Positions 7,156 to 27,024 of a DNA stretch of 64,000 nucleotides are shown in pieces. Below the pieces are notes generated by a model. It searched no databases, had not been told where the DNA came from, and saw only the letters and a list, made by a program, of their open reading frames with translations. Each line of letters opens with the position of its first letter. Position 1 is the first letter of the stretch. Origin of the DNA: Patescibacteria group bacterium (GTDB taxonomy: Bacteria > Patescibacteriota > Patescibacteriia > Magasanikbacterales > GWA2-37-8); contig JBAZUP010000001.1 of assembly GCA_041661385.1 (NCBI GenBank), positions 289,709 through 353,708 on the forward strand. The letters are read 5' to 3'. Made by a program: the position numbers and the translations under genes.

Positions 7156-8124
7156 TCAACTAATAATTTGAACCTCTTCTTCTAAATTAACTCCAAATTT
7201 ATTATACACCCTAGTTTTAACCTCATCAACTAATTTTAAGACATCTTCTGATGAAGCTTTGTCAATATTTATCATAAAATTACCGTGCTGTTCAGAAACC
7301 ATTGCTCCACCAATCTTTAGCCCCTTTAAACCGGCCTGTTCGTTAATCCAACCAGCGGGTACTTTTCCAGATGATACAAATTCAGGTGGTAATTGTCCGG
7401 CAGTTTTTGGCCAATCTTTAACCAAAACATTTTTAAAAAAACTCCCAGCCGAAGGATAAGGCGGATAATAACCAGCCCGACGATTTAATATCTCCTGCAT
7501 TTTTAATAGGCTTTTTTTACTTTCACCTTCAACCAATTTAAACCAACCTTTTAAAACTATTCCCCCATTATGCTTAAAAATACTATCACGGTATCCAAAT
7601 CCGCATTCCGCTGGATTAAGTTCTACCAGCTCTCCATCAATCCAAGCTTCAATTTTAGAAAGAACCTTGCCGGTTTCACCACCGGCCGCACCGGCATTTC
7701 CGCGAATCGCTCCTCCAACTGTTCCAGGCAGACCCGCCGACCATTCGAGGCCAGAAAAATTGTTTTGAAGAGCGAACAATGACAAAACCCCAAAACTAAC
7801 TCCGCTTTCTGCTTCAATTATTTCATTTTTATTTTTAAGAACCGAGGTAGAATTTTTTATCACCACCCCTTCAAAACCGTTATCGGAAATTAAAACATTC
7901 GAACCGCCTCCCAAAATAAAGTAAGATATACCCTCACCGGTCAAAAAACCCAATAATTCAATTAATTTTTCTCTTTCTTTAACTTCAATAAAAAGGCTAG
8001 CCGGTCCGCCAACCTTAAAAGTAGTAAACTTGGCCAAACTAACGTTCGCTTTAACATTTCCAAATTGTTTCAAATATTTATAAATAGCTGGATCCATATC
8101 TTGGGGTTTGTTTTGGCTAAACAT
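7156..8124 (-). CDS. murB: UDP-N-acetylenolpyruvoylglucosamine reductase MurB
   Basis: FAD-binding FTTFKVGGPA...ILGGGSNVL; MurB C-terminal domain. Confidence 0.85.
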   Translation of the reverse strand: MFSQNKPQDMDPAIYKYLKQFGNVKANVSLAKFTTFKVGGPASLFIEVKEREKLIELLGFLTGEGISYFILGGGSNVLISDNGFEGVVIKNSTSVLKNKNEIIEAESGVSFGVLSLFALQNNFSGLEWSAGLPGTVGGAIRGNAGAAGGETGKVLSKIEAWIDGELVELNPAECGFGYRDSIFKHNGGIVLKGWFKLVEGESKKSLLKMQEILNRRAGYYPPYPSAGSFFKNVLVKDWPKTAGQLPPEFVSSGKVPAGWINEQAGLKGLKIGGAMVSEQHGNFMINIDKASSEDVLKLVDEVKTRVYNKFGVNLEEEVQIIS

Positions 8125-8160
8125 TGCAAAAATTAGCCGTTTTCAGTATAATACAAATGT

Positions 8161-9378
8161 ATGAAAAATATTTCTTCCACATTAGCTGACCGACCAGTTG
8201 CCTATATTACCAGAGACCTAGAGAGAGCGCTACCCCTCATCACAAAAAAAGGTCACTTCATTATAACAAACTCTTCTCCTTTTGCGAAGAAAATTGCCCA
8301 AAAATATAAGGGTATTTTTTTGGTTTCTGACTCAAAAGTACTTGATACCCACGAAATTCTTTCCCGTCCCGATGTAATAAAGTTTATTAATTCAAAAAAA
8401 CTTTTTGGACTATTGGTATTTAAAAACACCTCCGCAATTGAAAAAATATGTTCCAACCGCGGTTGGAACCTGCTCAATCCCTCCGCAGTTCTTTCGTCGA
8501 AAATTGAAGAAAAAATTTCCCAAGTTGAATGGTTAAAAAAACTTGCTCATCTTCTTCCCCCTCATCAAATCGTTAACGGCTCAAAAATCGTATTTAAAAG
8601 CCGCCCTTATATTGCCCAATTTAACCGCGCTCATACCGGTCGCGGTACTTTTCTTATTGATTCACCAAAAGCAGCGGCCGAAATTACCAACAAATATCCA
8701 AATCGTCCGGTTCGAATAACAAAATATATTGAAGGTCCAGTATTTACCGCGAACATTGTAGTATCTAAAAATAAAATTCTTATCGGCTCAATTTCTTACC
8801 AAATTACCGGCCTAGCGCCTTTTACTTCAAACCCTTTTGCTACAGTTGGAAATGATTGGTTTTTACCAAGCAAGATATTATTGGAACAAAACATCAAAGA
8901 TTTTAATTATATTGCCGAGGCAGTCGGAAAAAAACTGGCAGAGGAAAATTGGCGAGGCCTGTTTGGCATTGATGTAATACTTGATAAAACGATAAATAAA
9001 TTTTATCTACTTGAAATAAATGCTAGGCAACCTGCATCAACCACATTTGAAAGCGAACTTCAGGCCAATAATAAATCCCGAACGACCTTTGATGTACATT
9101 TATCCGCCTTGTTCGATTTTGATCAAAATGAACCAGCCGGGAAAATTAAAGATGGCGCTCAAATTATTCTCCGGGTGTCTGAAAATCTGACAACAAAAAA
9201 CCTTGAAAAAATTACTTCAGCTCTGGGCAAAGCCGGGTTTACTACCATTCTTTATCCGAATAAGCTGCCAGGCAGCGATCTATTGCGAATAATGAGTAAA
9301 AAGGGTATAATGTCCGCCCATAACGAGCTAAATATGCGCGGTCTAAAGATTAAAGAAATTATCGAAAAATATGGATGA
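8161..9378 (+). CDS. ATP-grasp domain protein (divergent; Ddl-like role possible)
   Basis: C-terminal ATP-grasp core FGIDVILDK..FYLLEINARQP; sits between murB and mraY. Confidence 0.5.
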   Translation: MKNISSTLADRPVAYITRDLERALPLITKKGHFIITNSSPFAKKIAQKYKGIFLVSDSKVLDTHEILSRPDVIKFINSKKLFGLLVFKNTSAIEKICSNRGWNLLNPSAVLSSKIEEKISQVEWLKKLAHLLPPHQIVNGSKIVFKSRPYIAQFNRAHTGRGTFLIDSPKAAAEITNKYPNRPVRITKYIEGPVFTANIVVSKNKILIGSISYQITGLAPFTSNPFATVGNDWFLPSKILLEQNIKDFNYIAEAVGKKLAEENWRGLFGIDVILDKTINKFYLLEINARQPASTTFESELQANNKSRTTFDVHLSALFDFDQNEPAGKIKDGAQIILRVSENLTTKNLEKITSALGKAGFTTILYPNKLPGSDLLRIMSKKGIMSAHNELNMRGLKIKEIIEKYG

Positions 9379-9790
9379 TAACCGGCCAAAAGTTGGAGTG
9401 GGAATCATGGTTTTAAAAAATGGAAAAGTATTATTTGGACAAAGAAAGAACGCGCACGGCGACGGTGAGTTTTCGTTTCCTGGAGGTCACCTCGAACATG
9501 GTGAATCTATAATTGATTGCGCGAAACGCGAAACAAAAGAAGAAACCGGAATTGAAATAGAAAATGTGCGATTACTTTGCGTGAGTAATGAAAAAAAATA
9601 TTTACCAAAACATTATTTAAATATTGGTTTAATAGCAGATTGGAAAAGTAACGAGCCAAAAATAACCGAACCGGATAAATATATCAAAGTGGGCTGGTAT
9701 GATTTAGAAAATTTACCTAAACCCAGATTTGAAGTAGTAGATAATTACCTTGAAGCTTATAAAACCGGAAAAAAATTATTTGATTACTAA
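9371..9790 (+). CDS. NUDIX hydrolase
   Basis: GGHLEHGESIIDCAKRETKEETGIE Nudix box. Confidence 0.75.
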   Translation: MDDNRPKVGVGIMVLKNGKVLFGQRKNAHGDGEFSFPGGHLEHGESIIDCAKRETKEETGIEIENVRLLCVSNEKKYLPKHYLNIGLIADWKSNEPKITEPDKYIKVGWYDLENLPKPRFEVVDNYLEAYKTGKKLFDY

Positions 9791-9791
9791 C

Positions 9792-10577
9792 ATGCTCTCC
9801 CCTGTTGCTGAAAATTTAATTGAAAAATATTTTAACCTTCCGTTTCCGGGCGTAACAGGCGTACGCTGTCCGTACTATATCAACCGCCGCGGCGCTCGCA
9901 CCCAGCTTCGAGTTCTGGTTGGAAAAGGTTTACCCGATGAAATTGTGGAAGAAAGTAAAATAATTTCCATTCAATACGAACTTGGATTATTTGATAAAAA
10001 CGGCCGTTGCGACGAGCGCGGGGCAGAACTCATTCGAAAATTTCTTGTTGATCAAAATATTGGCATCGAGTGTTCAGGTTTTGTAAGCCATATATTAAGA
10101 GCGCACTATTTGGAAACAAAAAAATTTGATATTACAAAAAAACTTAATATCTGTCCCAGCGGAAAATTTATTCGTAAATTGATTTGCAAATTACGGCCCA
10201 TCGAAAACATGAATGTAAGCATCTTTGCTGACAACAGCAATAGTTCAATTATCAACACTGAACAATCCGGCTATGACCAGGTTCAAGCCGGCGATTACAT
10301 CATAATCATGGAAACCGGACCGCTTCAAAAGCGAAATCATATTATTTTGATTCGCGGAGTTGAAAATAAGATAATTAATTACGTTCATGCGAGAGCTTGG
10401 TCGAGCGAAGGTAAATATGGTCATGGCGTTACCGAAGGAAAAATTAGAATTATTAATAACAATAAAAACCTGCTAGAACAAGAATGGATAGAAAATGAAA
10501 AAATAAATGATCAAAACGAAACATACCTCGAAGCAAAACAAGCAAAAATATTAGAATTAAGAAGATTGAAATTTTAA
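9792..10577 (+). CDS. hypothetical protein
   Basis: ORF; likely start MLSPV at 9792 just after the NUDIX stop; coiled-coil C-terminus. Confidence 0.4.
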   Translation: MLSPVAENLIEKYFNLPFPGVTGVRCPYYINRRGARTQLRVLVGKGLPDEIVEESKIISIQYELGLFDKNGRCDERGAELIRKFLVDQNIGIECSGFVSHILRAHYLETKKFDITKKLNICPSGKFIRKLICKLRPIENMNVSIFADNSNSSIINTEQSGYDQVQAGDYIIIMETGPLQKRNHIILIRGVENKIINYVHARAWSSEGKYGHGVTEGKIRIINNNKNLLEQEWIENEKINDQNETYLEAKQAKILELRRLKF

Positions 10578-10578
10578 T

Positions 10579-11703
10579 ATGCCGGGTTATTTATCCTTAC
10601 AACTTCTACAACAATCCCTGCTATTTCTTATCGGATCTACTGTTTTAGCATTTCTTCTTGCTCCGCTTTTAACCGCACTACTTTATAAATACAAAATCGT
10701 CAGAAAAGCCGAGCATGATTATACTCTGCAAGGAGAGCGAAAAAATAAAGCCGGCACTCCGATTATGGGTGGACTTTTGGTGATTGTTGTAGTTTCGCTT
10801 ATTACGATCTTATTTAACTGGGATCGCCGCTTTACTTATGTGCCAATTGGCGCGATGGCTATTTCGGCAGTTCTTGGCGCGGCCGATGATTTACTCAACG
10901 TATTCGGAGGCAAACGGCGCTTACGAAATATAAAGCACACTTTAATTCTTATTAAAGTTCACAAAAAATGGTACATGAAGATTTGGCACATTGTTTGTTT
11001 ACCTTGGACCGTTTTTCGACAACTCGCAAGCTTGCTCGGATCAAAACAAGACAGGGGTGTTCAAGCACATGAAAAATTAATTTTACAATTTTTAGCCGGC
11101 GCGGTTACTGCCTGGTGGGTCTACTTTAAGCTCGGCCCGAGCTGGCACACACTTTGGATTCCTTTTGATGGCTCTATTTATGTTGGACCATTAATCATTC
11201 CAATCATTATCTTTTTTGTCATGTTTACTGCAAACGCTGTAAATATTTCAGACGGACTTGATGGATTAACTGGCGGCGCCCTTATTTCCACTTTCCTCGG
11301 ACTAACTTTGCTTAGCTGGGTAGAGGGCCGTACCGCTTTCACACCATTTAACGCAACCGCCGTCGGCGCACTCATCGCTTATACATATTTTAATGTTAAA
11401 CCGGCCCGTTTTCAAATGGGTGATGCCGGGTCGCTCGGTCTTGGCACTCTGCTTGCGATTAATGCAATCGCCATTAACAAAACTTTACTACTGCCAATGC
11501 TCGGTTTTATTTTTTATATTGAAATTATTTCTGTAATTACTCAGATCTTTTTTCGCCGCGTGCTCGGGCGGCGATTTTTTAAAATGTCACCCCTGCACCA
11601 CCACTTTGAAATTGCCGGTTGGAATGAAGAAAAAATTGTTATGCGTTTTTGGATAATACATTCTTTTATGGTTATTGTTGCGGTCTGGATCGCCCTTAGA
11701 TAA
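10579..11703 (+). CDS. mraY: phospho-N-acetylmuramoyl-pentapeptide transferase MraY
   Basis: DDLLNVFGG, NAVNISDGLDGL, MGDAGSLGLG motifs; 10 TM. Confidence 0.85.
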   Translation: MPGYLSLQLLQQSLLFLIGSTVLAFLLAPLLTALLYKYKIVRKAEHDYTLQGERKNKAGTPIMGGLLVIVVVSLITILFNWDRRFTYVPIGAMAISAVLGAADDLLNVFGGKRRLRNIKHTLILIKVHKKWYMKIWHIVCLPWTVFRQLASLLGSKQDRGVQAHEKLILQFLAGAVTAWWVYFKLGPSWHTLWIPFDGSIYVGPLIIPIIIFFVMFTANAVNISDGLDGLTGGALISTFLGLTLLSWVEGRTAFTPFNATAVGALIAYTYFNVKPARFQMGDAGSLGLGTLLAINAIAINKTLLLPMLGFIFYIEIISVITQIFFRRVLGRRFFKMSPLHHHFEIAGWNEEKIVMRFWIIHSFMVIVAVWIALR

Positions 11704-11705
11704 AT

Positions 11706-12359
11706 ATGGCATATTTAAAATGGAACCAACAAACAATTACTGATTTTTCTGACACTAACATAAATTCACTTTACAACGAAGGTTTTCTTTTTGGCCGAAT
11801 TAGCCACGGGACCATGGACCAAACCCGAAGCGTCCGAATTAATTTACTTGCGTTTGAACCATCGAGTGAAAACCGACGGATTTTAAAAAAAACTGAAGGG
11901 CTTCAGATCACAAACAAAGGCCTCCCCTATTTTTCCTACGACTGGTCAATTGGAAAACTCGGCAAAGATTTTTATGATACCAAATTTGGCGAAAAAACTT
12001 TCAGCGCCAACAAAATAAAAGAATTACTGACTGACCGGAAAAAAAGCAACTTTAACAAATTACTTTTGTATAAAATCGAAAATAATATCGCCGGTTATGC
12101 AATCTGTCTTGAAACCGACGAAATTTTGCACTATTGTTACCCGTTTTACGATCTTACTTCACCAATACCGAACCTTGGCCTCGGTATGATGCTACGAGCA
12201 ATACTCTGGGCAAAAGAAACAAATAAAAAATATATCTACCTTGGATCCGCCCAACGACCGACTGATACATACAAATTGCAGTTTGAAGGCATGGAATGGT
12301 ATGACGGTAAAGTATGGAAAGATAATTTAAACGAATTAAAAAAGATTATTTCGGAATAA
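11706..12359 (+). CDS. ATE/Bpt-family (arginyl/leucyl-tRNA--protein transferase C-terminal domain-like) transferase
   Basis: Pattern ...YCYPFYD...LGLGMMLRAILWAKE..KKYIYLGSA...YKLQF.GMEW matches ATE_C/Bpt consensus (SAVYTFFDP..SLG...YLYLGY..YK..F.P.E). Confidence 0.45.
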   Translation: MAYLKWNQQTITDFSDTNINSLYNEGFLFGRISHGTMDQTRSVRINLLAFEPSSENRRILKKTEGLQITNKGLPYFSYDWSIGKLGKDFYDTKFGEKTFSANKIKELLTDRKKSNFNKLLLYKIENNIAGYAICLETDEILHYCYPFYDLTSPIPNLGLGMMLRAILWAKETNKKYIYLGSAQRPTDTYKLQFEGMEWYDGKVWKDNLNELKKIISE

Positions 12360-12362
12360 TCT

Positions 12363-13736
12363 ATGTCCGAAAAAAAACACATTCATTTTATCGGAATCTG
12401 TGGCGTCGCGATGAGCGCGCTCGCTTTGACGTTTAAAGAACGCGGCTGGAAAGTTACCGGCTCTGATAAAGGATTTTTTCCGCCGATTTCTACCCATCTT
12501 GAACAAAATGGCATTGATTTTTATGCGGGTTGGCACCCTGAAAAAATGGGAACTCCTGATTTAGTTGTAGTTGGAAATGTGGCCGGCTCTGAAAACCCGG
12601 AATGGCTCTACATCCAAGAAAAAAACATTCCCTACAAATCTTATCCGGAAGTTGTTGGAGAATATTTTGTCCGACCAAATTCTATTGTCTGCGCCGGAAC
12701 CTACGGCAAAACAACTTGTACAGCGCTCCTTAGCTGGATATATTTGAATAACGGTTATAATCCGAATTACATGTTCGGCGGGCTTAGCCAAAACAAACTC
12801 CCGGCCGCACATCTCACAGAATCAAAATGGAGTATTCTTGAAGGTGACGAATATAAATCTGCCCGGTGGGATAATCGGCCGAAATTCAGCCACTACAATC
12901 CTAAGTATCTTTTATTAACTGCAGTCGTTTGGGATCACGCTGATATTTATAAAACTGAAGAAGATTACCACCGCGCCTTTCAAAAATTAGCGAACGAATT
13001 ACCCGACGACGGACTAGTCATAGTATCGGAACGAGTTGATTCAATTTCTTTTTCACCAAAAATAATCACTTACGGAAAATCCAAAAATTGCAGCTTCCGC
13101 TATGGCACCATCTGTGAAGATGCAACCGGCCTAAAATTTAATATTTATCACGATAACAAAAGTTATTTTATTGAATCGCCATGCCTAGGTGAATATATGG
13201 CCGATAATATTACCGGCTGTTTTGCGTTAGCTTTTTCTCTTGGCATTGAAGCAGAGAGTATTATTGAAAATATCAAAACTTTTTTGGGAATGAAAAGACG
13301 CCTAGAAAAAAGATTCGAAGGTAAAATAGATGTTTTTGACGACATCGCCCACTCTCCCGCCAAAGTAAAATCCGTGATTGAAACTTTACGTCGAAATTAT
13401 CCTGATAAAAAATTGATAATAATTTTTGAACCAAATACCGGCAACCGCCGCCCCGAAGCAATACCAGGTTACGACAAAGCATTTCTAGGTGCCGATGAAG
13501 TAATAATTCCGCGTCTTACAAAAATTAAACACACTGAAGGTGACGATGAACCGATTGAAGGCACGAAACTGACAAAAATTATCGCCAAGACCCACAAAAA
13601 TGTAAAATATTTTGAAAACGACGGTGAATTGGTTCGTTATCTGCTCGATAAGAATAATGAAAATGTTACGATCGCCTTTCTTGGCAGCCACGGCTTTCGC
13701 GGCATGATTGAAGATCTGGTAAAAAATCTGGATTAA
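12363..13736 (+). CDS. murC: Mur ligase (UDP-N-acetylmuramate--L-alanine ligase MurC / Mpl-like)
   Basis: HFIGICGVAMSALA N-terminus, GTYGKTTCTALL P-loop, Mur ligase middle and C-terminal domains. Confidence 0.7.
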   Translation: MSEKKHIHFIGICGVAMSALALTFKERGWKVTGSDKGFFPPISTHLEQNGIDFYAGWHPEKMGTPDLVVVGNVAGSENPEWLYIQEKNIPYKSYPEVVGEYFVRPNSIVCAGTYGKTTCTALLSWIYLNNGYNPNYMFGGLSQNKLPAAHLTESKWSILEGDEYKSARWDNRPKFSHYNPKYLLLTAVVWDHADIYKTEEDYHRAFQKLANELPDDGLVIVSERVDSISFSPKIITYGKSKNCSFRYGTICEDATGLKFNIYHDNKSYFIESPCLGEYMADNITGCFALAFSLGIEAESIIENIKTFLGMKRRLEKRFEGKIDVFDDIAHSPAKVKSVIETLRRNYPDKKLIIIFEPNTGNRRPEAIPGYDKAFLGADEVIIPRLTKIKHTEGDDEPIEGTKLTKIIAKTHKNVKYFENDGELVRYLLDKNNENVTIAFLGSHGFRGMIEDLVKNLD

Positions 13737-13741
13737 AAAAT

Positions 13742-13764
13742 CCAGTCGCTCGCGAACGACTGGA
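13742..13764. terminator. bidirectional hairpin terminator (CCAGTCGCTCG/CGAACGACTGG)
   Basis: 11-bp stem with 1 mismatch, flanked by A-run (+) / T-run (-); between convergent genes. Confidence 0.5.
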
Positions 13765-13775
13765 TCAAGTTCTGC

Positions 13776-14011: not shown

Positions 14012-14911
14012 ATGAAAACACCCCAAAAACCAATGCCCAATCTGGCTAAAGCACTCGGATTAAAAAACGAAGTATGGTTTAAGTTTGAAAATAAACACCA
14101 CCTTGGTTCACATAAGGGCCGCTCCATACCACGAATGATTGAAGAATATTTAGAAAAAAAAGTAACATCATTTGTTATTTCTTCATCTGGAAATGCCGCT
14201 CTCGCCGCCCTTCTTACAGTTGTCGCACACAATAAAAATAAACCTACAAGCACTCTTTCCCTAAAAATTTATGTCGGTGAAGGAGTTACAAAAGACAAAT
14301 TATTAACATTACAATCAAAACAGGACAGCTGCATAAGTATTGAACAGGTTAAAAACCCCAAACAAAGCGCGCTTAATTTTTCCAAAGAATCCGGTGCGAC
14401 CTGGTTGCGCGGTTCAACTGACCCACTCGCGCTAATCGGTTATCGGAGTCTATCTGAAGAACTATTAAAAATTGAAAACCTCTCCGCCGTTTTTTTAGCG
14501 GCATCTTCTGGAACCGCCGCCGAAGGAATAATGTCGGGTTTCAACGCTGCCCATACAAATCCAGAGCTTCACATTGTTCAAACTGATTCATGTCATCCGA
14601 TTATAAATTATTTATTAGAAAATCAAAATCAAACGGTACCAAAAGTCAGTCTGAATAATAGTTTGGCGGATGCAATAATTGATAAAGTTGGCCATCGAAA
14701 AGAAAGCGTAACAAAAGCAATAATTAATTCAAATGGAGCCGGTTGGATTGCGAGTGACGCTCAGATTAACGAAGCGATTGAACTTGTAAAAAAAGAAACC
14801 GGAGAAAAAATTTCTCCGAATAGCGCGCTCTCGGTGGTCGGCCTTAAAGAAGCAGTACTCTCCGGCCGTAAATGGAAGGGGCCAGTGGCATGTATTATCG
14901 GAGGAGATTAA
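14012..14911 (+). CDS. PLP-dependent fold-type II enzyme (threonine synthase/cysteine synthase superfamily), divergent
   Basis: FKFENKHHLGSHKGRS resembles K-E-NPTGSFKDRG PLP-lysine motif; SSGNAALA glycine loop. Confidence 0.5.
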   Translation: MKTPQKPMPNLAKALGLKNEVWFKFENKHHLGSHKGRSIPRMIEEYLEKKVTSFVISSSGNAALAALLTVVAHNKNKPTSTLSLKIYVGEGVTKDKLLTLQSKQDSCISIEQVKNPKQSALNFSKESGATWLRGSTDPLALIGYRSLSEELLKIENLSAVFLAASSGTAAEGIMSGFNAAHTNPELHIVQTDSCHPIINYLLENQNQTVPKVSLNNSLADAIIDKVGHRKESVTKAIINSNGAGWIASDAQINEAIELVKKETGEKISPNSALSVVGLKEAVLSGRKWKGPVACIIGGD

Positions 14912-16884
14912 TTTTTTGTTGTAATCATTAATTCCTGCTTTTTTTCATTGTTGAAATTAACGGCCGCCAGGCCGATTTTTTGATTTCCAAAAATACCCGT
15001 TATAATAAAATTATTAATCTTTGATCCGGAAAAATTAAATATTCCGACCTCGGGATTTTTTTGTTGTTTTACGACTGCGAGCTCATCTGAACCATCACCA
15101 TTAAAATCTCCGGCTGAAATAGTCAGCGTACCATTAAATTTTTTTCCAAACGGGCTAAAACGAGTTAATATTTTATTCAAATCTTTATCAAAAAATACTA
15201 CTTCCGCCGGACGACGACCGCTAGTTGCAAAAATAATGGACGGTTTACCGTAAAAATTTCCAATGGCGGCCGAAAAACCGCCCTGATATTTTTTTCCTAG
15301 CGGATAGAAGCTTTCATTAATAATTCCACCATGATAATTATACAGAACTACTTTTCCACCTCTGGAACCACTGACAATTATTTGTTTTTGACCATCATTT
15401 TCTAATGAACCCAAAGCAACATTTATCTCACCCTTATAATTACCGCCCAGAGGAAAGTCATTAAACCAGCGTGCGCCGCTCTCATCAAATATTTCCATTC
15501 GGGGTCCGGTTACAACAATTTTTTCAAGCATCTTGTCACCATTTACATCACCAGAAAATATTTTTGCGCCGCCGGGAAGATCGTTTTCATACGAAAAAAA
15601 TCCGTTTCTGGCGCGTTTTCCAGTAACATTATAAAAACGCAAAAAGGAACCGTTCGCATAGACAGCCTCGGTCACTCGCTGAAATGTTTTATATAGCAAA
15701 ATTCCATCCTTTGATTGCAAAGTTACCGAATCGACAATCGATCCATCATTTACAACTTTATCCTGTGTGCCGATCAATTTTTCGTATTCACCACCTAAAT
15801 CAATGGTGCGACTTTGATCCGTCGGGTTAACTAACGCAAGACCATTAGCGTAATCACGACGCCAAACATCAGGCTGAAACGGCGAATTACCTCCGACTGA
15901 AATTGCGTTCCCCGCCGCCCCACCGAGCTCGGCGTCATATTCATCGTACCACCAAAGCTGGGCATGATTCTGATCACCATAATCATAATCAAAATAGACG
16001 TTATCTGTTAGCAAACTACTCGCAAGACCAAATCGAACTTTTTTATAATCATTTTGTTTGCCGGTATTATTACTGTTTGAATTAAAAACATACAGCTGCG
16101 GAGCGGTATTCAAATTTTTGTTTTTTGACATTACCGTCATGATTGCGCTCCAATTGCCGCCGCTTTCCCAAGGAGTTGGAAAAGTTTCATACATTCGGCC
16201 GTTCACATATTTCTGAAAAACTTCGTTTGAGCTGCCATTAATAACTAAATATTTTGTTCTAATATTATTTTTTGCACTTTCAAGCAAATACTTTACTCGC
16301 TGTTGCCACTCAATATCCGTTAAAGTTTTGTTTCCCGCTGAAACGGCGCTTAAAACCACGTCACCATGATTAATAGACGAAACCGTGTCGTTCACCATAT
16401 CAAAAAATACCCCATCCACATTCGGCAAAGTAATAATATTATTGTTTATAAACTGAACCAAATACCCTGACCAGGCCGGATCCATATTTAAATTGCGAAT
16501 TCCCGGCCAATCGGAAATAATATTTCCCGACCGATCCCTTAACCACCACTCATCTTTTATGCCGTTTAAATTTTTATAAACCAAATCATCCGGCCAATAT
16601 TTAAAATTATAACTTTGACTTGGCACATAAGCGAGCATGATTATTTTCGGATTTACCTTTTTTACAGCAGCCAATATTTCGCTTCGAACAATAAATTGAT
16701 CTGGGCTAAGAATCAGTAAATTCATTTTGCTGAGTTTTTGTATAGATGTCGAATCCGTCGGCAAAGTACCAAGATAATATGCCGCCACTTGAGGCGCGGC
16801 GCTGGTTTGGTTTTGAAGAAGCACCAACGTCAAATACACTCCGATAAAAATAATTGAAATAATTTTCCAAAAAAATCTGTTCAT
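14908..16884 (-). CDS. secreted glycoside-hydrolase-like protein with C-terminal FG-GAP/VCBS repeats
   Basis: Signal peptide; N-terminal TIM-barrel-like polysaccharide hydrolase region; repeated GDVNGD/GDFNGDG FG-GAP motifs. Confidence 0.4.
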   Translation of the reverse strand: MNRFFWKIISIIFIGVYLTLVLLQNQTSAAPQVAAYYLGTLPTDSTSIQKLSKMNLLILSPDQFIVRSEILAAVKKVNPKIIMLAYVPSQSYNFKYWPDDLVYKNLNGIKDEWWLRDRSGNIISDWPGIRNLNMDPAWSGYLVQFINNNIITLPNVDGVFFDMVNDTVSSINHGDVVLSAVSAGNKTLTDIEWQQRVKYLLESAKNNIRTKYLVINGSSNEVFQKYVNGRMYETFPTPWESGGNWSAIMTVMSKNKNLNTAPQLYVFNSNSNNTGKQNDYKKVRFGLASSLLTDNVYFDYDYGDQNHAQLWWYDEYDAELGGAAGNAISVGGNSPFQPDVWRRDYANGLALVNPTDQSRTIDLGGEYEKLIGTQDKVVNDGSIVDSVTLQSKDGILLYKTFQRVTEAVYANGSFLRFYNVTGKRARNGFFSYENDLPGGAKIFSGDVNGDKMLEKIVVTGPRMEIFDESGARWFNDFPLGGNYKGEINVALGSLENDGQKQIIVSGSRGGKVVLYNYHGGIINESFYPLGKKYQGGFSAAIGNFYGKPSIIFATSGRRPAEVVFFDKDLNKILTRFSPFGKKFNGTLTISAGDFNGDGSDELAVVKQQKNPEVGIFNFSGSKINNFIITGIFGNQKIGLAAVNFNNEKKQELMITTKN

Positions 16885-16887
16885 ATC

Positions 16888-18375
16888 TTAGTCTCGCAAA
16901 AAATTCCAGGAAAATTGATGCTCGCGGAAATAATATAGAGCAATTCCGACAATTAACCAAAAATATACCATGAGTGTTCTAAATTCAAAATATGGACCAA
17001 AAAAACCAAGAACTGAAAGCGCGACTACCACGCCACATAAACCTTGCGCAACAGTTTTTTGAATCACATCCTCAGTTCGTCTTTGTACAAAATACGCACT
17101 GCGATAAATTTCCCTAAATAATAATATCCAAATAAAAAGTCCCGCTGTACCAAGCTCACCCCAAATACTTAACCAATTATTATCAATTTGACCATAAATA
17201 TTTTGAATACCGAACGGCAAATGCAACTTGTCATAAATCTCACGGTTATCGAGTGCTGCCGCCACTCCACCGCCATAATTGCCAGGTCCAACGCCAAACA
17301 ATGGATAATGACTTACCACCATGAGCGGAGTATTAATAATAAAGAAAAATCTTCCATAACCCTCGTAGCTTTGTTGCCAGCTATAAAGACTTACCGTTTC
17401 TACTAATCGATCTCGAATCGACTGACGACCGGTTTTATCTATTGCTGCCGTGCCAAGGCTTTGTGTAACAATGACAAATAATAAATACATCGTAACAATA
17501 AAACCACCGACGGCTAAAATTCTAAATAAACGGCGATCGTTCATCAAAAAATAACCAATGGTAAACATTCCGGCGAGAAAGGCAATCCAACTAGCGCGCG
17601 AATAAGTCAACATTAATGCAACTGCTCCAAGAACAAAAGCAACCCACCATTTTTCTCTCGCAACTTTATCCTTAAGCGCATAAAACCAAGGAAATAACAT
17701 AATAAGACCTGTCGCAAGCAAACTACCAAGCCGATCATAGCGACCAAGGGTCGCGAATACTCTTTGACCTGGTGCCCAATTTTGTTCGATACCACCATAT
17801 TCAATGGAACCAAAATTTATGGAATCTGAAAAAAATAAATATTTATCAAGAACACCGCCGGAAATCGCTTGAATAATTGCCAGCACCGATTCGCCTACAA
17901 CAATATAGATACCAATTTTTAAAAAATTCTTTATTACCGCTTCGGAATAATTCTCTAAAATAAAAATTATAAATATCAAAACAAATCGAAGTAATTGTCT
18001 AATACCTAAAAACCAAACGGCCGGATTATATAAATTGGTAAGTAACGAAACTAAAGTTATACCTAAAAATAATAATAAATATTTGTTTACTGGCGTAACA
18101 GGAAACCAATGACGATTCTTTTTTAAATAACTGGCCCAACTAATTATGAGGGTGCCATAAACCAAGACTTCCGGAAAATATTTTATAAATACATAATAAT
18201 CCGAACTCGAGTATCTTAGAGCAATAGTTTCAAAAGGAAACCAAATTAATAATGCATATAAAATGTACTCTGTTTTGCGTAATGAAAAAACTATCAGTAA
18301 AAATAAAAATGCCACGACTGCGAGCAGAAGAAAGGTAAATGCTGAACCTTCGGCGAATGGCGGGACATTAAACAT
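16888..18375 (-). CDS. O-antigen ligase/polymerase family membrane protein
   Basis: ~11 TM; Wzy_C-like loop YSRASWIAFLAGM. Confidence 0.6.
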   Translation of the reverse strand: MFNVPPFAEGSAFTFLLLAVVAFLFLLIVFSLRKTEYILYALLIWFPFETIALRYSSSDYYVFIKYFPEVLVYGTLIISWASYLKKNRHWFPVTPVNKYLLLFLGITLVSLLTNLYNPAVWFLGIRQLLRFVLIFIIFILENYSEAVIKNFLKIGIYIVVGESVLAIIQAISGGVLDKYLFFSDSINFGSIEYGGIEQNWAPGQRVFATLGRYDRLGSLLATGLIMLFPWFYALKDKVAREKWWVAFVLGAVALMLTYSRASWIAFLAGMFTIGYFLMNDRRLFRILAVGGFIVTMYLLFVIVTQSLGTAAIDKTGRQSIRDRLVETVSLYSWQQSYEGYGRFFFIINTPLMVVSHYPLFGVGPGNYGGGVAAALDNREIYDKLHLPFGIQNIYGQIDNNWLSIWGELGTAGLFIWILLFREIYRSAYFVQRRTEDVIQKTVAQGLCGVVVALSVLGFFGPYFEFRTLMVYFWLIVGIALYYFREHQFSWNFLRD

Positions 18376-18439
18376 AGAATCGAAAATCTGGGCTTATTAT
18401 ACTATTTTTCAGCAAAATACTAAAGTAAAATATCATTTT

Positions 18440-18463
18440 AAAAAACCCCAAAACGGGGTAATT
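18440..18463. terminator. hairpin AAAAACCCCaaaaCGGGGTAATTTT
   Basis: Short GC stem flanked by A/T runs, upstream of O-antigen ligase start. Confidence 0.35.
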
Positions 18464-18631
18464 TTAGCCAAATATATTAATTATGGCTATATATCGACCA
18501 CCTTTCAAAAAGCTGAGCGATATATAGCTGCCGACCGTTCAAACACGGGTGCATGAATGGTCGGCAGAGTAATTCTCCCGGACCACTCGTATGGTTAACG
18601 AACGGTCTGGGAAGTTTTCTTCAGTGAAACA

Positions 18632-20353
18632 CTACTGTTGGTAGACGCGTCCACCGTTCCAAGTGGCTCGGTAGTTCGGCACCACATAAACGCACGTGGT
18701 ACCGTTTGGCGCCCACCAGGTCCGCTGAGAACAGCCGGTCAAATCGCCGTTCTCCATCATGGACCGATGATTCCTCGCCGGATCTGAGGTGAGACACTTG
18801 TCAGCTCCGACATAGTAACCACCATCCCATGCGGTGTCGGTGTACACTTGCACACCAACTCCCGTGCGACTGACGCACAACCGGAACTGGTCCGGCGCGC
18901 ACTTGGTAGTACCCTGGATAAAGACTCCAGAGTGACAGTCGAACGCATTTCCAGACTGTGGAGTCTGGTCGATCTCAACATCACCGTTGCAGGTCTTGGT
19001 AGCAGACCAAAGCGGTCCGCAATTCAAGCTCGAGCATTCGGTATGGGCGGTGCAGGTTGCACCGTTGGCCTTGCCGGTACCACCAGCCGTATAGGCGACC
19101 AGATTGATCGTCATCGAGTGGCTGGTAGCGCTCCAAACGCCGGTGACAGTGAGCGGATAGGTAAGCCCCGTCGTACTTGCCGCAAGCGTGTAGGGCACGG
19201 TAACGAGCAGAGTTGAAGTACCGCTTGAATTTGCAACCGTGACGGAAGTCGGGCTGAGGCTGGCAGTAGTACCCGCCGGAGCTCCGGTAACAGTCAGGGC
19301 GACGACCTTGGACGTGGTGTCCGCGGTCGCAATCGTGATGATTGCAGAAACCGAGACGGTTCCTGTCGTCGGAACGGTTACCGACAAAGTCGGTGGACCC
19401 GAGATCGTGAAATCCGTTGTCGGAACCACACAACTCGTACCATTGCACGCGCCGGTCGCGCAGTAAGTACCATTGCCATTTGGCGTGGTACCACATCCGT
19501 TGTTCGGCAGGATCGAAGTCCCGCAAGCAACGGTGTTCGCCGGCGGATAGGTCGGTGTACAACCCGAGACACAGGTGGTGCCGTTGCACGTGCCAGTCGC
19601 ACAGTAGGTACCGGTGCCGTTTGGCACAGTACCACATCCGTTGTTCGGCAGGATCTGAATCCCGCAGTTGACGGACGAAGCCGGCGAATAGATCGGCGTG
19701 CAATTCACCTTCGGCGCACAGGTGCCGTTGGTGCAGGTGTCACTTTCGCAGTTGCTTCCCTGGTGACAGGGCATGCCAACCGCCAAGTCCGTGCGATCGT
19801 AACAGACATTGTTGATGCAATCCTGGCCGAGCAGGCACGACTTGTTGCAGCTTGTCGGCGGAATGCACAATTGGGTAGTGCGGTCGCACTTTCCGCTTGA
19901 GCACTTGTCATCCCCAACTCCGCAGAACGCGTAATCGGGACGACCGACACACCACCCAGACACTCTGCCGGCCTCGAGAGGACAGAGCAACGAAACGCAC
20001 TGGAGTCTCGAGGTGCAAGGCGCACCGTTGAAGAACTGCTCGGAAGGAACACAGAGGTTCGATTCGAGCGGCTGTGGTGCACAGGTCATGGTGTCGCGGC
20101 AGGGCGGGCTGCAGGTCTGCAGGGTGCACTTGCCCACCGTCGCGGTGCCGGTGACGATGCATGTGTTGTTGTCGGCGCACTGGTCCGATCCGGTGCAGTC
20201 TGCACCGATAGGCCTGCCGACGCACTTGCCGTCGGGTCCGCAGGGCAATTCGGAAGAGCACTCCAGGTACTGGTTGCAGGGCTGACCGTTGGGAATCTTC
20301 GGACAACCCGTCAGCATTGCGATCATCATCGCAAACAACGAGAGCTTCCGCAT
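18632..20353 (-). CDS. cysteine-rich repeat lipoprotein (high-GC island)
   Basis: Lipobox MLTGC; ~70 Cys in C-x3-C-x5-6-C-x3-G-x-C type repeats (myxobacterial-style Cys-rich repeat); Thr/Ser-rich Ig-like segment; GC ~62%. Confidence 0.6.
   Translation of the reverse strand: MRKLSLFAMMIAMLTGCPKIPNGQPCNQYLECSSELPCGPDGKCVGRPIGADCTGSDQCADNNTCIVTGTATVGKCTLQTCSPPCRDTMTCAPQPLESNLCVPSEQFFNGAPCTSRLQCVSLLCPLEAGRVSGWCVGRPDYAFCGVGDDKCSSGKCDRTTQLCIPPTSCNKSCLLGQDCINNVCYDRTDLAVGMPCHQGSNCESDTCTNGTCAPKVNCTPIYSPASSVNCGIQILPNNGCGTVPNGTGTYCATGTCNGTTCVSGCTPTYPPANTVACGTSILPNNGCGTTPNGNGTYCATGACNGTSCVVPTTDFTISGPPTLSVTVPTTGTVSVSAIITIATADTTSKVVALTVTGAPAGTTASLSPTSVTVANSSGTSTLLVTVPYTLAASTTGLTYPLTVTGVWSATSHSMTINLVAYTAGGTGKANGATCTAHTECSSLNCGPLWSATKTCNGDVEIDQTPQSGNAFDCHSGVFIQGTTKCAPDQFRLCVSRTGVGVQVYTDTAWDGGYYVGADKCLTSDPARNHRSMMENGDLTGCSQRTWWAPNGTTCVYVVPNYRATWNGGRVYQQ
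19430..19700. repeat. tandem ~138-bp (46-aa) duplication inside cysteine-rich gene
   Basis: Protein unit C.P.Y.PA..V.CG...ILPNNGCGT.PNG.GTYCATG.CNGT.C occurs twice; nearly identical DNA visible. Confidence 0.7.
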
Positions 20354-20568
20354 GGCTGCTCCTTCTCCTCACTTCATGCGAGGAATGGTTCCGGCTTTCA
20401 CATGAAAGTCGGTAATTCTTGTTTCACTTCAGTTTTCAACGAACTTCTTGTTTCTCCTTTTCTAGTCACAAGATTAGTTATGGCTAGAATAAGGTTGCCA
20501 TCAACTCTCGGAAGAGTTGATGGCAATTTGCATAGGCGAACCTATGCGATGAAAAGAGCTACTTGTGG

Positions 20569-21354
20569 CTAGAAGAAGCCACCGGTGACTGTCTCCAGCT
20601 TGTCGTTCGTCCAGGTCTGGAAAGGCCGGGACGGACTGGCATGCTGCCAACCGGTATAGGTACCGGTGGTACCATTCGGCACCGTGAAGGAGCCGGAGGC
20701 TTCAGGACAGCAGATCTGCGAATTCGCAGACACCGACTGACTGTCGACGTTCTTCTTGCCGGCGATGAACTGGTCCCAGCAAGTGAAGACGCTGTTCGTC
20801 GTGGGCGTGGCGCAAAGGATGTACTGCGCCGTTCCGACAACGCAAACGTTGTCGATGCACACGTGACCAGACGTGCAATCCGGGGTGCAGAAGTTTCGAG
20901 CGTAACACACGCCCGAGACGCAGTTCTGGCCCGTGGGACACGGGTTCGAGCTGCTGCACACGTTGTTGTTCGGAGGCGTGGTGCCCGGAGTCTTGCAGAC
21001 TCCGCTGTCGCAGACCAGATTCTTGGTCCCGTCGCAGTCGGCGCTGAAGACGCACTTCTTCCCGACCTCGCAGAGGTTGGGAGGCTCTGCCATCCGGCAA
21101 GACCATCCGCAGTCGACATCCGACTCCGAATAGTCCTGAACGCCGTTGTTGCATCGGGCGACGTCCCAGGTGGTGCAGATGCCCTTCAGCTCCCGCTCGT
21201 TGCCGCAGACCAGGCCGTCGGCGCACTCGTTGCTGTTCAGGGCGCAGGAATCGTGGAACTTCTTCTTCCCGTGCTCGTAGTCCTTCCCGCAGCCGGGGAG
21301 GAGGGTGAACATCGCCACGATGGCGATGGTGAACAACTGCGCGAACTTCTTCAT
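20569..21354 (-). CDS. cysteine-rich secreted lipoprotein (high-GC island)
   Basis: Lipobox LLPGC; repeated C-x-D-G-x-C / CxxGxxC units; GC ~62%. Confidence 0.55.
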   Translation of the reverse strand: MKKFAQLFTIAIVAMFTLLPGCGKDYEHGKKKFHDSCALNSNECADGLVCGNERELKGICTTWDVARCNNGVQDYSESDVDCGWSCRMAEPPNLCEVGKKCVFSADCDGTKNLVCDSGVCKTPGTTPPNNNVCSSSNPCPTGQNCVSGVCYARNFCTPDCTSGHVCIDNVCVVGTAQYILCATPTTNSVFTCWDQFIAGKKNVDSQSVSANSQICCPEASGSFTVPNGTTGTYTGWQHASPSRPFQTWTNDKLETVTGGFF

Positions 21355-21545
21355 GATCGCTCCTTCTCTCCCCTTTAACGGGTGAGATTTTTCCGAGCTT
21401 CCATTATGAAAACCCGGTAATTCTTTTTCCTATCTGAAAATAAATTTCTTTATTCCCAGAAGTGGAGGTCCTTGCGCCTCTTGACGCAAGGACCGATCCG
21501 ATCGATCTTTTAACGCTCGAAAGCGTTAGAAAATACGATTTTGCC

Positions 21546-22607
21546 CTATCGGGACAGGGCAACGTCCGCGGCATTGAAGCCGATTCGGACAATGAAGCTG
21601 CTTCCTGGTGACAGGTATCCGTCCTTCGGGCCCAAATTGTGGGCCCACTCTCCCTCGGCGACGAAAGCGCCGAACTTCAAACGGAGAGTTGCTCCCGGCA
21701 TGCTGGCCGTGAGCTTGTCCATCTCCCATCTTCCGATGCGAGTGAACGACGGACCAATGCCCATCTGAAACTCCCGATCAAGAGCGTTCACGAAGTTGAA
21801 GAGGATCTTCCCCTTCGCTTCGGCTCTGAAGAGCGGGCTGAAATTGCCGAGAGTAAGACGGTCGTGATAAATGACCGCCCCACCACCGGCAATGCCGATG
21901 AGCAACCGATCCCCGAGGATCGGAGGTGAATAGTTCAGCTGAACATCTCCGAGGACAGCGCCATCGGTAATCCATCCCAGCCCGAAGCCGAGCTCGAGAT
22001 AGTTTGACCGCTTCGTGACGATCACCGGAGGCGGTCGAGTGTCGACCACTTCAAGTGGGCCATAGATCCTGCGGCGGGAGTCTGCTGCGGACGCTTCGTC
22101 CGCGGCCTTCTTCCTTGCTTCCTCTTCCTCGCGGATGCGAGCTTCGGAAGCTGCCTTCTCACGAGCGACGACCTCGGCGACCGCCTTCATGTCGGCTTGC
22201 TGCTTGCGGTAGTCGAGCACAGCATGGCGCGCCTGCTCCGGATCGTTGCAAAGCTCTTCCGGGTATTCATACTGCCGGCAGAACTTCCGATTGATTTCAG
22301 TGCGGCGCTTCTCGTTGTCCTGGTTGACCTTCTTCTTGAGTGCCTTGCGGACGCACTTCGGGTCCGCACAGCACTGCGCGCTGACATGAAGACCACCGAG
22401 GGTCTTCTGGCAGGACTTGAGGGCGACCATGTCCTCGGACTCCGGCGTGAGCTCGACCTGAATCTTGTCGGGCATGTGCCTTCCGACGATCTTGTCGATC
22501 TCGGACTGCGAGAGACTGGTGGGTGCCGGTGCCGCCGACTCGGCCATGACGCTACTCGCGAGCGTCATGAAAACGAAAGCAACTGCGAAGCGAACGATGT
22601 TGTTCAT
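21546..22607 (-). CDS. secreted protein with coiled-coil N-region and beta-rich C-domain (possible OM beta-barrel), hypothetical
   Basis: Signal peptide ...VMAES; Cys pairs; Glu/Arg/Lys coiled segment; C-terminal alternating hydrophobic strands ending in an aromatic-type tail. Confidence 0.45.
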   Translation of the reverse strand: MNNIVRFAVAFVFMTLASSVMAESAAPAPTSLSQSEIDKIVGRHMPDKIQVELTPESEDMVALKSCQKTLGGLHVSAQCCADPKCVRKALKKKVNQDNEKRRTEINRKFCRQYEYPEELCNDPEQARHAVLDYRKQQADMKAVAEVVAREKAASEARIREEEEARKKAADEASAADSRRRIYGPLEVVDTRPPPVIVTKRSNYLELGFGLGWITDGAVLGDVQLNYSPPILGDRLLIGIAGGGAVIYHDRLTLGNFSPLFRAEAKGKILFNFVNALDREFQMGIGPSFTRIGRWEMDKLTASMPGATLRLKFGAFVAEGEWAHNLGPKDGYLSPGSSFIVRIGFNAADVALSR

Positions 22608-22623
22608 CTTTTCTCCTCTCCCT

Positions 22624-23310
22624 TTACGGGGTGGTAGTGGTTTCGGGTTGCTTCTGCTTCGAACCGAGACGATTCTTCAATTCCTCTGCAGAGGTGATCG
22701 CGGTCTTTTCCGAGATCTTGATCTGCTCTGCAAGGCAAGCTGCGTTCCAGGCGTTTCGCTCGAGAGCGAATTCATTCGCCTGATCAGCGATCTTCTTCTT
22801 GAGCTCGGCCGTAGCAAAGCTGGATGCCGCACCCATGTCGGGGAACACAGATCTCCCCATCATGAAAGCAAAGACGGTGCAGATGGTACAGACAACCACC
22901 CAAACCCACGGGAACTTCTTCGGCTTCGCATGATGAGACCGAGATGGCTCGTGATGAAAGTGAGCCGGCTCGTCGTGTGGAACGGCGGAGTGATCCGTAT
23001 GAAAACTGGGCTCTTCCTGATGAGTCGTTGGCACTTCCTCACAAAGAGACGTATTGTAAATAACGACAATATCGTCCCAAGCCTTCAGCGCCTTCTGCTT
23101 CATCACCTTGTGATGGTCCTCGGGAATATGAGGGCGTCGCAGGCTATCGAGCGCCGATGTGAGCTCGTTGAAGTGTTCCAGCATCTCCTGCTGATTGACT
23201 TTTTTCGTGAGGAAATCAAGCACGGACTTGACACTTTCGTGATTGGTTTCAATGCCGATCTCTCGGAGCTGGACCAAAAGCGCTGAAGTATATTCGCCTG
23301 GCTTCATCAT
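22624..23310 (-). CDS. single-pass membrane protein (anti-sigma-factor-like topology), hypothetical
   Basis: Cytoplasmic N-domain, His-rich linker, one TM (WVWVVVCTICTVFAFMMG), periplasmic C-domain. Confidence 0.4.
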   Translation of the reverse strand: MMKPGEYTSALLVQLREIGIETNHESVKSVLDFLTKKVNQQEMLEHFNELTSALDSLRRPHIPEDHHKVMKQKALKAWDDIVVIYNTSLCEEVPTTHQEEPSFHTDHSAVPHDEPAHFHHEPSRSHHAKPKKFPWVWVVVCTICTVFAFMMGRSVFPDMGAASSFATAELKKKIADQANEFALERNAWNAACLAEQIKISEKTAITSAEELKNRLGSKQKQPETTTTP

Positions 23311-23340
23311 TTGCTTTCTCCCTAGTTGGTAAAATGAGCT

Positions 23341-23361
23341 CTGTCCTGTAAAACAGGACAG
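23341..23361. promoter_or_regulatory. perfect 9-bp inverted repeat CTGTCCTGT-aaa-ACAGGACAG upstream of 22624..23310 gene
   Basis: Seen directly; lies 30-50 nt upstream of the minus-strand start codon; candidate operator. Confidence 0.3.
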
Positions 23362-23546
23362 TCCAGATATACTAAACAGATTTCTGGAAAGAAAATCGGC
23401 TCAAAGCTGGTTTTCTTCCCTAAAACCTGTACTAAAGTGGCTTGCCTATCCAAAAATACCTTATCACACAGAACTGCTCAGCTTATCATAAATTAGCGAA
23501 AATGTCAAGAGCTTTTTGCAGTCTTTACTCCTATATAGCACAAACT

Positions 23547-27011: not shown

Positions 27012-27024
27012 CACAAGAAAAATT

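Follow-up and report, generated by a model that had tools for sequence, protein, structure and literature searches.

We examined a 64 kb stretch of contig JBAZUP010000001.1 from a Patescibacteria group bacterium of the order Magasanikbacterales (this whole stretch, at its full length, is "the window"), which has a low GC content of ~38-40%. The locus under study, positions 8161-13736, is one tight operon of six + strand genes that overlap or are spaced by 1-3 nt, marked by NCBI proteins MFA6105263-MFA6105269. Its fifth gene encodes a short protein of the ATE/Bpt superfamily of aminoacyl-tRNA-type transferases ("the transferase"), and lies between mraY and the gene for a UDP-MurNAc ligase (MurNAc, N-acetylmuramic acid) of the MurC/Mpl clade. 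The operon and its immediate surroundings comprise the following features.

7156-8124, - strand: murB, UDP-N-acetylmuramate dehydrogenase, divergent from the operon (TIGR00179, 239 bits; NF010480, 275 bits; both over the cut-off)
8124-8152, + strand: promoter-like site TTGCAA-17-TATAAT, 10 of 12 consensus matches, a pattern match only, 9 nt before the start of the ATP-grasp gene
8161-9378, + strand: divergent ATP-grasp carboxylate-amine ligase, resembling PurK and L-amino-acid ligases and not Ddl (Pfam ATP-grasp_3, E 1.9e-8)
9371-9790, + strand: NUDIX hydrolase, a variable member of the operon (Pfam NUDIX, 73.5 bits)
9792-10577, + strand: probable NlpC/P60-type papain-fold enzyme, cytoplasmic, with invariant Cys-His-His
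10579-11703, + strand: mraY, phospho-MurNAc-pentapeptide transferase with a divergent N-terminus (Pfam Glycos_transf_4, 94 bits; TIGR00445, 180 bits, just short of its cut-off, 192)
11706-12359, + strand: ATE/Bpt-superfamily aminoacyl-tRNA-type transferase, short (217 aa) and without a zinc finger (Pfam ATE_C, 28.9 bits)
12363-13736, + strand: Mpl-like UDP-MurNAc ligase of the MurC/Mpl clade, with all three Mur ligase domains
13739-13766: 12-bp inverted repeat forming a strong hairpin, a possible operon end (terminator-like scan, a pattern match only; T-run reported on the - strand)
14012-14911, + strand: fold-type II pyridoxal phosphate (PLP) enzyme of the PALP family (Pfam PALP, 102 bits)

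An earlier note on this DNA, made from the letters alone, had placed the open reading frames (ORFs) of the locus and guessed their families, and the ORF list, Pfam and NCBIfam bore out all of its coordinates and hidden Markov model (HMM) assignments. Its remark that no canonical ddl is seen holds for the window and for ~5 kb past its left end, on a contig of 778,751 bp; in this part HMM searches and Escherichia coli queries found no further mur or ddl genes. The left flank beyond the window carries Suf Fe-S genes only. The MraY of the window has a long divergent N-terminal part, and E. coli MraY aligns only to its residues ~210-370.

The protein between mraY and the ligase had been described as ATE_C/Bpt-like, and we reached the same assignment: residues 117-198 match ATE_C (PF04377) at 28.9 bits, against a gathering score of 25. 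Pfam gave no match to FemAB, Leu_Phe_trans or ATE_N in the 217-aa protein, and none to ATE_N in 10 distant family members. Against the NCBIfam arginyltransferase equivalogs the protein scores 28-49 bits (best 48.6, with a cut-off of 170), compared with cut-offs of 170-267, and its relatives score 19-49 bits. The family comprises 1836 clusters at 90% identity and 283 at 50% identity, with relatives in 382 GTDB species genomes. Pipelines name its members variously as hypothetical proteins, GNAT acetyltransferases and arginyl- or leucyl-tRNA-protein transferases (JGI, UniRef).

The motifs of the window transferase are those of ATE1 and Bpt, namely R..L..F.PS.S.++.LKK, FYD, YLG and the catalytic Tyr-Lys (PMC9351520). 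When the family profile was compared with human and yeast ATE1, two segments aligned, F.PS.S.++.LKK and the FYD...LG...YLG...YK core, and residues 234-307 of yeast ATE1 aligned to profile positions 133-204. Y189-K190 is invariant across the family alignments and falls on the ATE1 Tyr-Lys (the "..KYKGQY" segment). The K304A mutant of klAte1 is inactive, and K304 is equivalent to K305 of FemX (PMC9351520). The natural acceptor of ATE and Bpt enzymes is the alpha-amine of an N-terminal Asp or Glu (PMC9351520).

A search of PDB sequences with the transferase profile returned nothing significant, with ATE1 appearing only at E 0.5-2.4, and the ATP-grasp family profile detected no relative of solved structure there; structure prediction was therefore needed for both. 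The AlphaFold2 (AF2) model of the transferase has a mean predicted local distance difference test score (pLDDT) of 94.6, and the whole 217-aa chain superposes on ATE1 with 211 residues aligned. The fold is nearer to the aminoacyl-tRNA-dependent GNAT-fold enzymes (ATE, LFTR, Fem, MprF) than to acetyl-CoA GNATs. We thus rejected an ordinary GNAT acetyltransferase, which the earlier note had raised as a way in which it could be wrong. Distant family members match both ATE_C and the Fem-like Acetyltransf_6.

The window transferase differs from ATE1 and Bpt in lacking ATE_N, the Cys4 zinc finger and the C-terminal extension, and in its gene context, which is that of cell-wall operons and not of the N-degron machinery. 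In klAte1 the zinc/Fe-S site lies in ATE_N and its four cysteines are C23, C26, C95 and C96. This site is not kept here, as "QTCCPQYTIR" of human ATE1 aligns with "lfylaRslR" of the family, which has no Cys. The window transferase has two Cys only, both outside the zinc-site segment. The transferase thus forms a separate, minimal branch within the aminoacyl-tRNA transferase group and can be classed neither with canonical Bpt enzymes nor with ordinary GNATs. Two natural fusions were seen in the family. One (P0378, 809 aa) joins the transferase to a PPDK_N ATP-grasp-type domain and a PEP-utilizers swivel domain, and the other (P0074, 379 aa) to a C-terminal classical GNAT acetyltransferase.

The gene that follows encodes a ligase with the three Mur domains of Mpl, including the N-terminal UDP-binding domain. 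Whole-length scores leave it between two families: the NCBIfam murC model (TIGR01082) gives 238.3 bits (cut-off 335.1) and the mpl model (TIGR01081) 233.3 bits (cut-off 388.7), with the latter match ending at residue 359. In the PDB sequence search the window ligase ties between Psychrobacter Mpl (3hn7) and MurC, and by alignment it is 29% identical to E. coli Mpl and 26% to E. coli MurC. JGI and UniRef label it Mpl. Das et al. (PMC3060825) found a loop, (S/T)AFFDKRSK, together with a Tyr, that every Mpl enzyme has and that the other Mur ligases lack. The window ligase carries this Mpl-only loop and Tyr in a diverged form after DEY (DEY-KSARWDNRPKF, i.e., SARWDNRPK where Mpl has CAFFDKRSK, with the Tyr kept). 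The loop is also present in orthologues of the ligase from other members of the Candidate Phyla Radiation (CPR), and E. coli MurC has a seven-residue gap there. Moreover, E. coli Mpl was the best query for the adjacent ligase in 88 loci (73 from Magasanikbacteria, 5 from other CPR and 10 from metagenomes), and MurC in none.

Sequence comparison thus indicates a ligase that is Mpl-like and not MurC-like. Its C-terminal peptide-binding motifs, IAHS, EPNTGN and GSHG, are not the Mpl residues (FAHH, EPRSNT and SNG). Mpl enzymes take L-Ala, L-Ala-D-Glu and tri- to pentapeptides (PMC3060825), so that substrate size in the Mpl clade is plastic. Unlike the Mpl of Gram-negative recycling, the window ligase is part of a biosynthetic operon with murB and mraY, and it occurs in CPR, for which no role in recycling has been established.

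The arrangement had been expected to recur in relatives, and it does. Among 80 species-level loci of Magasanikbacteria, with transferase identities of 56-78% and denominators that count informative loci, the transferase has mraY as its immediate upstream neighbor in 73 of 74 and the ligase downstream in 63 of 70. The PALP-family PLP enzyme follows the ligase in 57 of 60. The ATP-grasp and NlpC/P60-like pair lies upstream in 47/56 loci, the NlpC/P60-like gene comes after the ATP-grasp gene in 52/53, and murB is divergently upstream of the ATP-grasp gene in 39/43. This arrangement is far beyond chance. Nine loci have a class B penicillin-binding protein (ftsI) and murF instead of the ATP-grasp pair, in the order ftsI-murF-mraY-ATE-ligase, so that the organisms with these loci have MurF. 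A role of the cluster as a mobile element or in defence was rejected, as its core genes are housekeeping cell-wall genes in stable synteny. Many GTDB records with the CPR-type cluster (L002, L004, L005 and others) are titled "uncultured Gammaproteobacteria bacterium" (third-party annotation assemblies). Given their gene content and 57-78% identity to Magasanikbacteria proteins, this title is almost certainly a mislabel.

In other CPR lineages, members at 29-39% identity keep the ligase as a neighbor, beside murA, murB or murE. In detail, they show murE (canonical, 391 bits)-ATE-ligase, murA-ATE-ligase, ligase-ATE, and murB|ATE-ligase. In Zambryskibacteria the order is ligase-ATE-PgeF-like, adjoining murA and murB. 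The Zambryskibacteria protein of the PgeF/YfiH-like (peptidoglycan editing factor) family is divergent, with 38 bits in L095 (6799-7614). In further relatives of high GC content (L082 177-1067, L089, L100, L103), the pair is flanked by unassigned ORFs of ~290 aa whose Cys/His stretch resembles that of the PgeF-like protein, and the L082 copy has no NCBIfam match.

A metagenome scan with a distant transferase subfamily gave 154 relatives and placed the subfamily in Bacteroidota as well, where the neighborhoods include three kinds. Eleven loci have ftsW-murG-ATE, with ftsQ-ftsA(-ftsZ) visible downstream in 10 of them. Six of the eight such loci that were looked up by exact sequence fall in clusters with named Cytophagales (Thermoflexibacter, Leadbetterella, Emticicia, Lacihabitans and Spirosomataceae). 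In 19 low-GC loci a gene resembling that of elongation factor G (EF-G) is directly upstream of the transferase, usually with a GT2 gene after it, and murB is one gene further up in the 6 loci that reach that far. Seven loci have the aspartyl-tRNA synthetase (AspRS) gene next to the transferase, as AspRS-ATE.

The division and cell wall (dcw) cluster of the cultured Thermoflexibacter ruber (GCA_900113045.1) reads ftsI-murE-mraY-ftsW-murG-ATE-ftsQ-ftsA-ftsZ. Compared with the E. coli order, neither murD nor murC stands in its canonical slot, and the transferase occupies that of murC. The two genes are likewise missing from the dcw clusters of the nine ftsI-murF loci of Magasanikbacteria and of ten more Cytophagales-type loci, in which the transferase lies between murG and ftsQ. 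The MurE of the Cytophagales cluster is of the diaminopimelate (DAP) type (626 bits). With E. coli Mur and Ddl queries, MurD and DdlB had no match in any of 166 loci, within locus flanks of at most 10 kb each. Small ORFs of the 23S_rRNA_IVP family lie exactly at the murD and murC positions in T. ruber (L170, 6037-6441 and 9569-9967), and an AbiEii gene lies between its murE and mraY.

Upstream of mraY, the ATP-grasp protein had been described as having only a recognizable core, and its Pfam match to ATP-grasp_3 is indeed limited to residues 116-290. The family has 1406 homologues. The AF2 model (pLDDT 92.4) is closest to biotin carboxylase (25.3), the L-amino-acid ligase BL00235 (24.9) and a Streptomyces peptide ligase (24.3), followed by PylC (23.9), PGM1 (23.5) and BesA (22.9). 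Some relatives are fused to NUDIX (~540 aa, several clusters) and others to the NlpC/P60-like protein (~670 aa, e.g., P0155).

The earlier note had put an ATP-grasp, a NUDIX and an unknown gene between murB and mraY. All three are present. The position of the NUDIX gene is not conserved, however, being shared by only 2 of 53 relatives, and the supposed unknown gene starts at ATG 9792 (261 aa, identical to P0391) and not at TTG 9750. Its product is the probable NlpC/P60-type enzyme. C94 (GIECSGF), H183 (NHIILI) and H199 (YVHAR) are invariant in 46 NlpC/P60-like sequences, in the order of a DCSG ... H ... H triad. Pfam matches among the 46 members are weak or sub-threshold (NLPC_P60 in 29 at E<=1, best 4.5e-5; Amidase_6 in 16; CHAP in 7), and the window copy has none. 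The usual target of NlpC/P60 enzymes is the gamma-D-Glu-diamino-acid bond.

In 25 Magasanikbacteria loci the ligase and PLP genes are separated by a second kind of NUDIX (~185 aa, with a perfect Nudix box, e.g., L007 11001-11555). It is the sole recurring insertion, the others between cluster genes being miscellaneous (methyltransferase and GIY-YIG-like ORFs). The recurrence of NUDIX at different positions and in ATP-grasp fusions hints at a nucleotide-linked substrate. The PLP enzyme, named "PLP-dependent lyase/thiolase," has only weak similarity to threonine synthase (ThrC), IlvA and SbnA; as a speculation, it might be the source of a stem-peptide residue, either a D-amino acid or a diamino acid of an unusual kind. 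The ATP-grasp/NlpC-P60 module and the PLP enzyme are a lineage-specific addition and not part of the conserved core.

The folds, motifs, operon structure, gene fusions and synteny described above point to a peptidoglycan-precursor module. On this reading, to which we give a probability of roughly three in four, the 217-aa protein is an aminoacyl transferase that depends on aminoacyl-tRNA and is devoted to making the cell-wall peptide. The earlier note had suggested a tRNA-dependent modification of lipid II or the stem peptide by a non-Fem enzyme. This is partly supported, in that the catalytic Tyr-Lys is kept, the protein is not an ordinary acetyltransferase, and it is linked to peptidoglycan genes across deep divergence. 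Lipid II fares less well as the acceptor: the Mpl-like first ligase is the constant partner, along with genes of early steps (murA, murB and a PgeF-like gene), whereas mraY and the enzymes of lipid II are not. Lipid II is therefore the less likely acceptor, and the step that first joins the peptide to UDP-MurNAc is favored.

A narrower version, to which we give slightly less than even odds, is that the transferase acts at the entry step with the Mpl-like ligase, building the N-terminal stem peptide for en bloc attachment to UDP-MurNAc. It is the most economical account of four lines of evidence. The transferase is constantly paired with a first ligase of the Mpl type and has early-step genes (murA, murB and PgeF-like) around it, murC and murD are missing in clusters that carry it, and its superfamily acylates the alpha-amine of N-terminal Glu or Asp.

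In the scheme that we infer for the donor, the acceptor and the order of steps, the transferase would first acylate D-Glu or a gamma-D-Glu-X peptide at its free alpha-amino group with an L-amino acid, in the simplest case L-Ala taken from Ala-tRNA. The Mpl-like ligase would then join the resulting di- or tripeptide en bloc to the UDP-MurNAc made by MurB, so that the two steps together would cover what MurC and MurD do. The ATP-grasp enzyme of Magasanikbacteria may make one of the peptide bonds of this free peptide, or that of a dipeptide substrate, and the fused or adjacent NlpC/P60 enzyme may cleave the bond so formed. MurF, seen in sister genomes, and MraY would complete the precursor.

The most far-reaching form of this scheme, which we put forward as tentative, is that MurC and MurD have been replaced in Magasanikbacteria, in some other CPR and possibly in cultured Cytophagales (Thermoflexibacter, Leadbetterella, Emticicia). 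There, the ATE enzyme would make L-Ala-D-Glu(-X) from Ala-tRNA off the nucleotide and the Mpl-derived ligase would attach it. With the ATP-grasp/NlpC-P60 pair of Magasanikbacteria standing in for MurE, this would amount to a tRNA-dependent, convergent route to the stem peptide.

Several points weigh against these proposals. Many Bacteroidota relatives have no adjacent ligase (the 19 EF-G-like/GT2 loci and the 7 AspRS loci), and the ATP-grasp, NlpC/P60 and PLP genes are not next to the transferase outside Magasanikbacteria. The murC, murD, murE, ddl and fem genes may all be elsewhere in the genome, as the searches covered the window and the locus flanks. The ligase may simply be the MurC of this lineage, since Mpl-type ligases can use L-Ala, and the PgeF-like neighbor in Zambryskibacteria fits a MurC-like single-amino-acid step. 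We know of no precedent in the ATE superfamily for D-Glu or a gamma-linked peptide as the acceptor, and the sequence by itself identifies neither the donor nor the acceptor.

A less likely alternative is a Fem-like branch enzyme, which would transfer an L-amino acid or Gly from aminoacyl-tRNA to UDP-MurNAc-pentapeptide or lipid II, at the amine in the side chain of residue 3, to form an interpeptide bridge, with canonical MurC-F complete elsewhere in the genome. This demands less than the entry-step proposal, as it requires no loss of essential genes, and tRNA-dependent bridges have ample precedent (PMC2922099). The transferase shares with FemX, FemABX and MurM the superfamily fold, the peptidoglycan context (it sits within peptidoglycan and dcw clusters) and aminoacyl-tRNA use, known for Fem and inferred for the window protein, and the Acetyltransf_6 matches of distant members also fit. 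In contrast, the protein is a single 217-aa unit without a FemAB match. Fem enzymes are ~330-400 aa long, with a double GNAT domain and a coiled coil, and to our knowledge a pairing with the first Mur ligase is not characteristic of their genes. The constant neighbors here are that ligase and early-step genes, rather than murF, murG or genes for lipid-II enzymes, and a Fem-like role leaves the missing murC and murD of the T. ruber cluster unexplained. Moreover, bridges are not expected in Cytophagales with a DAP-type MurE.

For the ATP-grasp enzyme alone, a non-orthologous replacement of Ddl that makes a D-Ala-D-Ala-type dipeptide for MurF is conceivable, and we think it improbable. The gene adjoins murB, as ddl does in E. 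coli, sister genomes encode MurF, which needs a dipeptide, and structural neighbors include dipeptide-forming L-amino-acid ligases, and neither the window nor any of the 166 loci gave a Ddl match. The enzyme is not itself Ddl-like, a point on which the earlier note had hung its interpretation: neither Dala_Dala_lig_N nor Dala_Dala_lig_C matched in Pfam, and Ddl is not its nearest structural relative. In addition, the NlpC/P60 fusion has no parallel in Ddl biology.

A closer parallel to that fusion is glutathionylspermidine synthetase/amidase (GspSA), in which an ATP-dependent amide-forming ligase is joined to a papain-fold amidase (CHAP/NlpC-P60 clan) and can make and break the same bond. The Magasanikbacteria module likewise pairs an ATP-grasp ligase with a predicted papain-fold enzyme. 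It differs from GspSA in domain order and families, and its parts are usually separate adjacent genes that are fused in some species only. The D-Asp ligase Aslfm is a precedent for an ATP-grasp ligase that adds residues to peptidoglycan precursors (PMC2922099).

Returning to the transferase, the acceptor could be a lipid or a sugar, as with MprF on phosphatidylglycerol and Sbb17 on an amino sugar, for example a polyprenyl- or UDP-linked amino sugar of the envelope. The gene adjoins mraY in the window, and Flavobacteria-type relatives adjoin a GT2 glycosyltransferase and a membrane protein. We regard this as quite unlikely, given that this is a soluble protein, lacking any membrane or flippase domain, and that its conserved CPR partner is a UDP-MurNAc ligase and not a lipid enzyme. 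Least probable of all is a Bpt-type N-degron enzyme in an incidental operon position, adding Leu or Arg to N-terminal Asp/Glu of proteins for Clp-dependent degradation: the database names and the best HMM and fold matches (ATE and Bpt) agree with it, but the equivalog scores are far below their cut-offs, ATE_N and the four zinc-binding cysteines are lacking, and mur/dcw synteny is maintained across phyla.

Our literature search found no description of an ATE-superfamily transferase paired with an Mpl-like ligase. PacB, VlmA and DhpH are small-molecule aminoacyl-tRNA transferases. Together with Sbb17 and Aslfm they serve antibiotic pathways or Gram-positive cross-bridges, and none is paired with an Mpl-like ligase. 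Both tRNA-dependent wall transferases and Mpl ligases are already known. What is new, as a variation on known kinds, is that a wall enzyme belongs to the ATE superfamily, that it is coupled to an Mpl-like ligase, and that ATP-grasp and NlpC/P60 proteins are fused.

The cytoplasmic Mur pathway (MurC, D, E and F) is regarded as near-universal and is a drug target. If our interpretation is correct, the transferase would represent either an additional way in which the stem peptide can be begun or a new family of tRNA-dependent enzymes, other than Fem, that modify the wall, and the replacement model, should it hold, would add a new route to an essential pathway. As cultured Cytophagales carry relatives, the question is open to genetics and muropeptide analysis, beyond the uncultured CPR. 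The analysis also provides fold-level functional assignments for three protein families that are large in CPR and are now annotated as hypothetical, "GNAT acetyltransferase" or "arginyltransferase."

Beyond the PLP gene, the - strand (14908-18375) encodes a GHL15 glycoside-hydrolase-like protein with FG-GAP repeats and then a Wzy_C (O-antigen ligase-like) membrane protein; the GHL15 gene adjoins the cluster in many relatives too. Next to these is a high-GC island at 18400-23400 (50-57%, against ~38% elsewhere), which is possibly horizontally acquired. Its - strand ORFs encode secreted proteins of 573, 261, 353 and 228 aa that are rich in Cys and resemble lipoproteins, and these matched no Pfam family apart from a weak match to DUF7107, and it has no rRNA. 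At 61346-63421, SecDF is fused to a PPIC-type peptidyl-prolyl isomerase domain. We also identified a transfer-messenger RNA (tmRNA) gene at 26622-27016, with the tag ANLLSKVKASVANAFSTFAPAMA.

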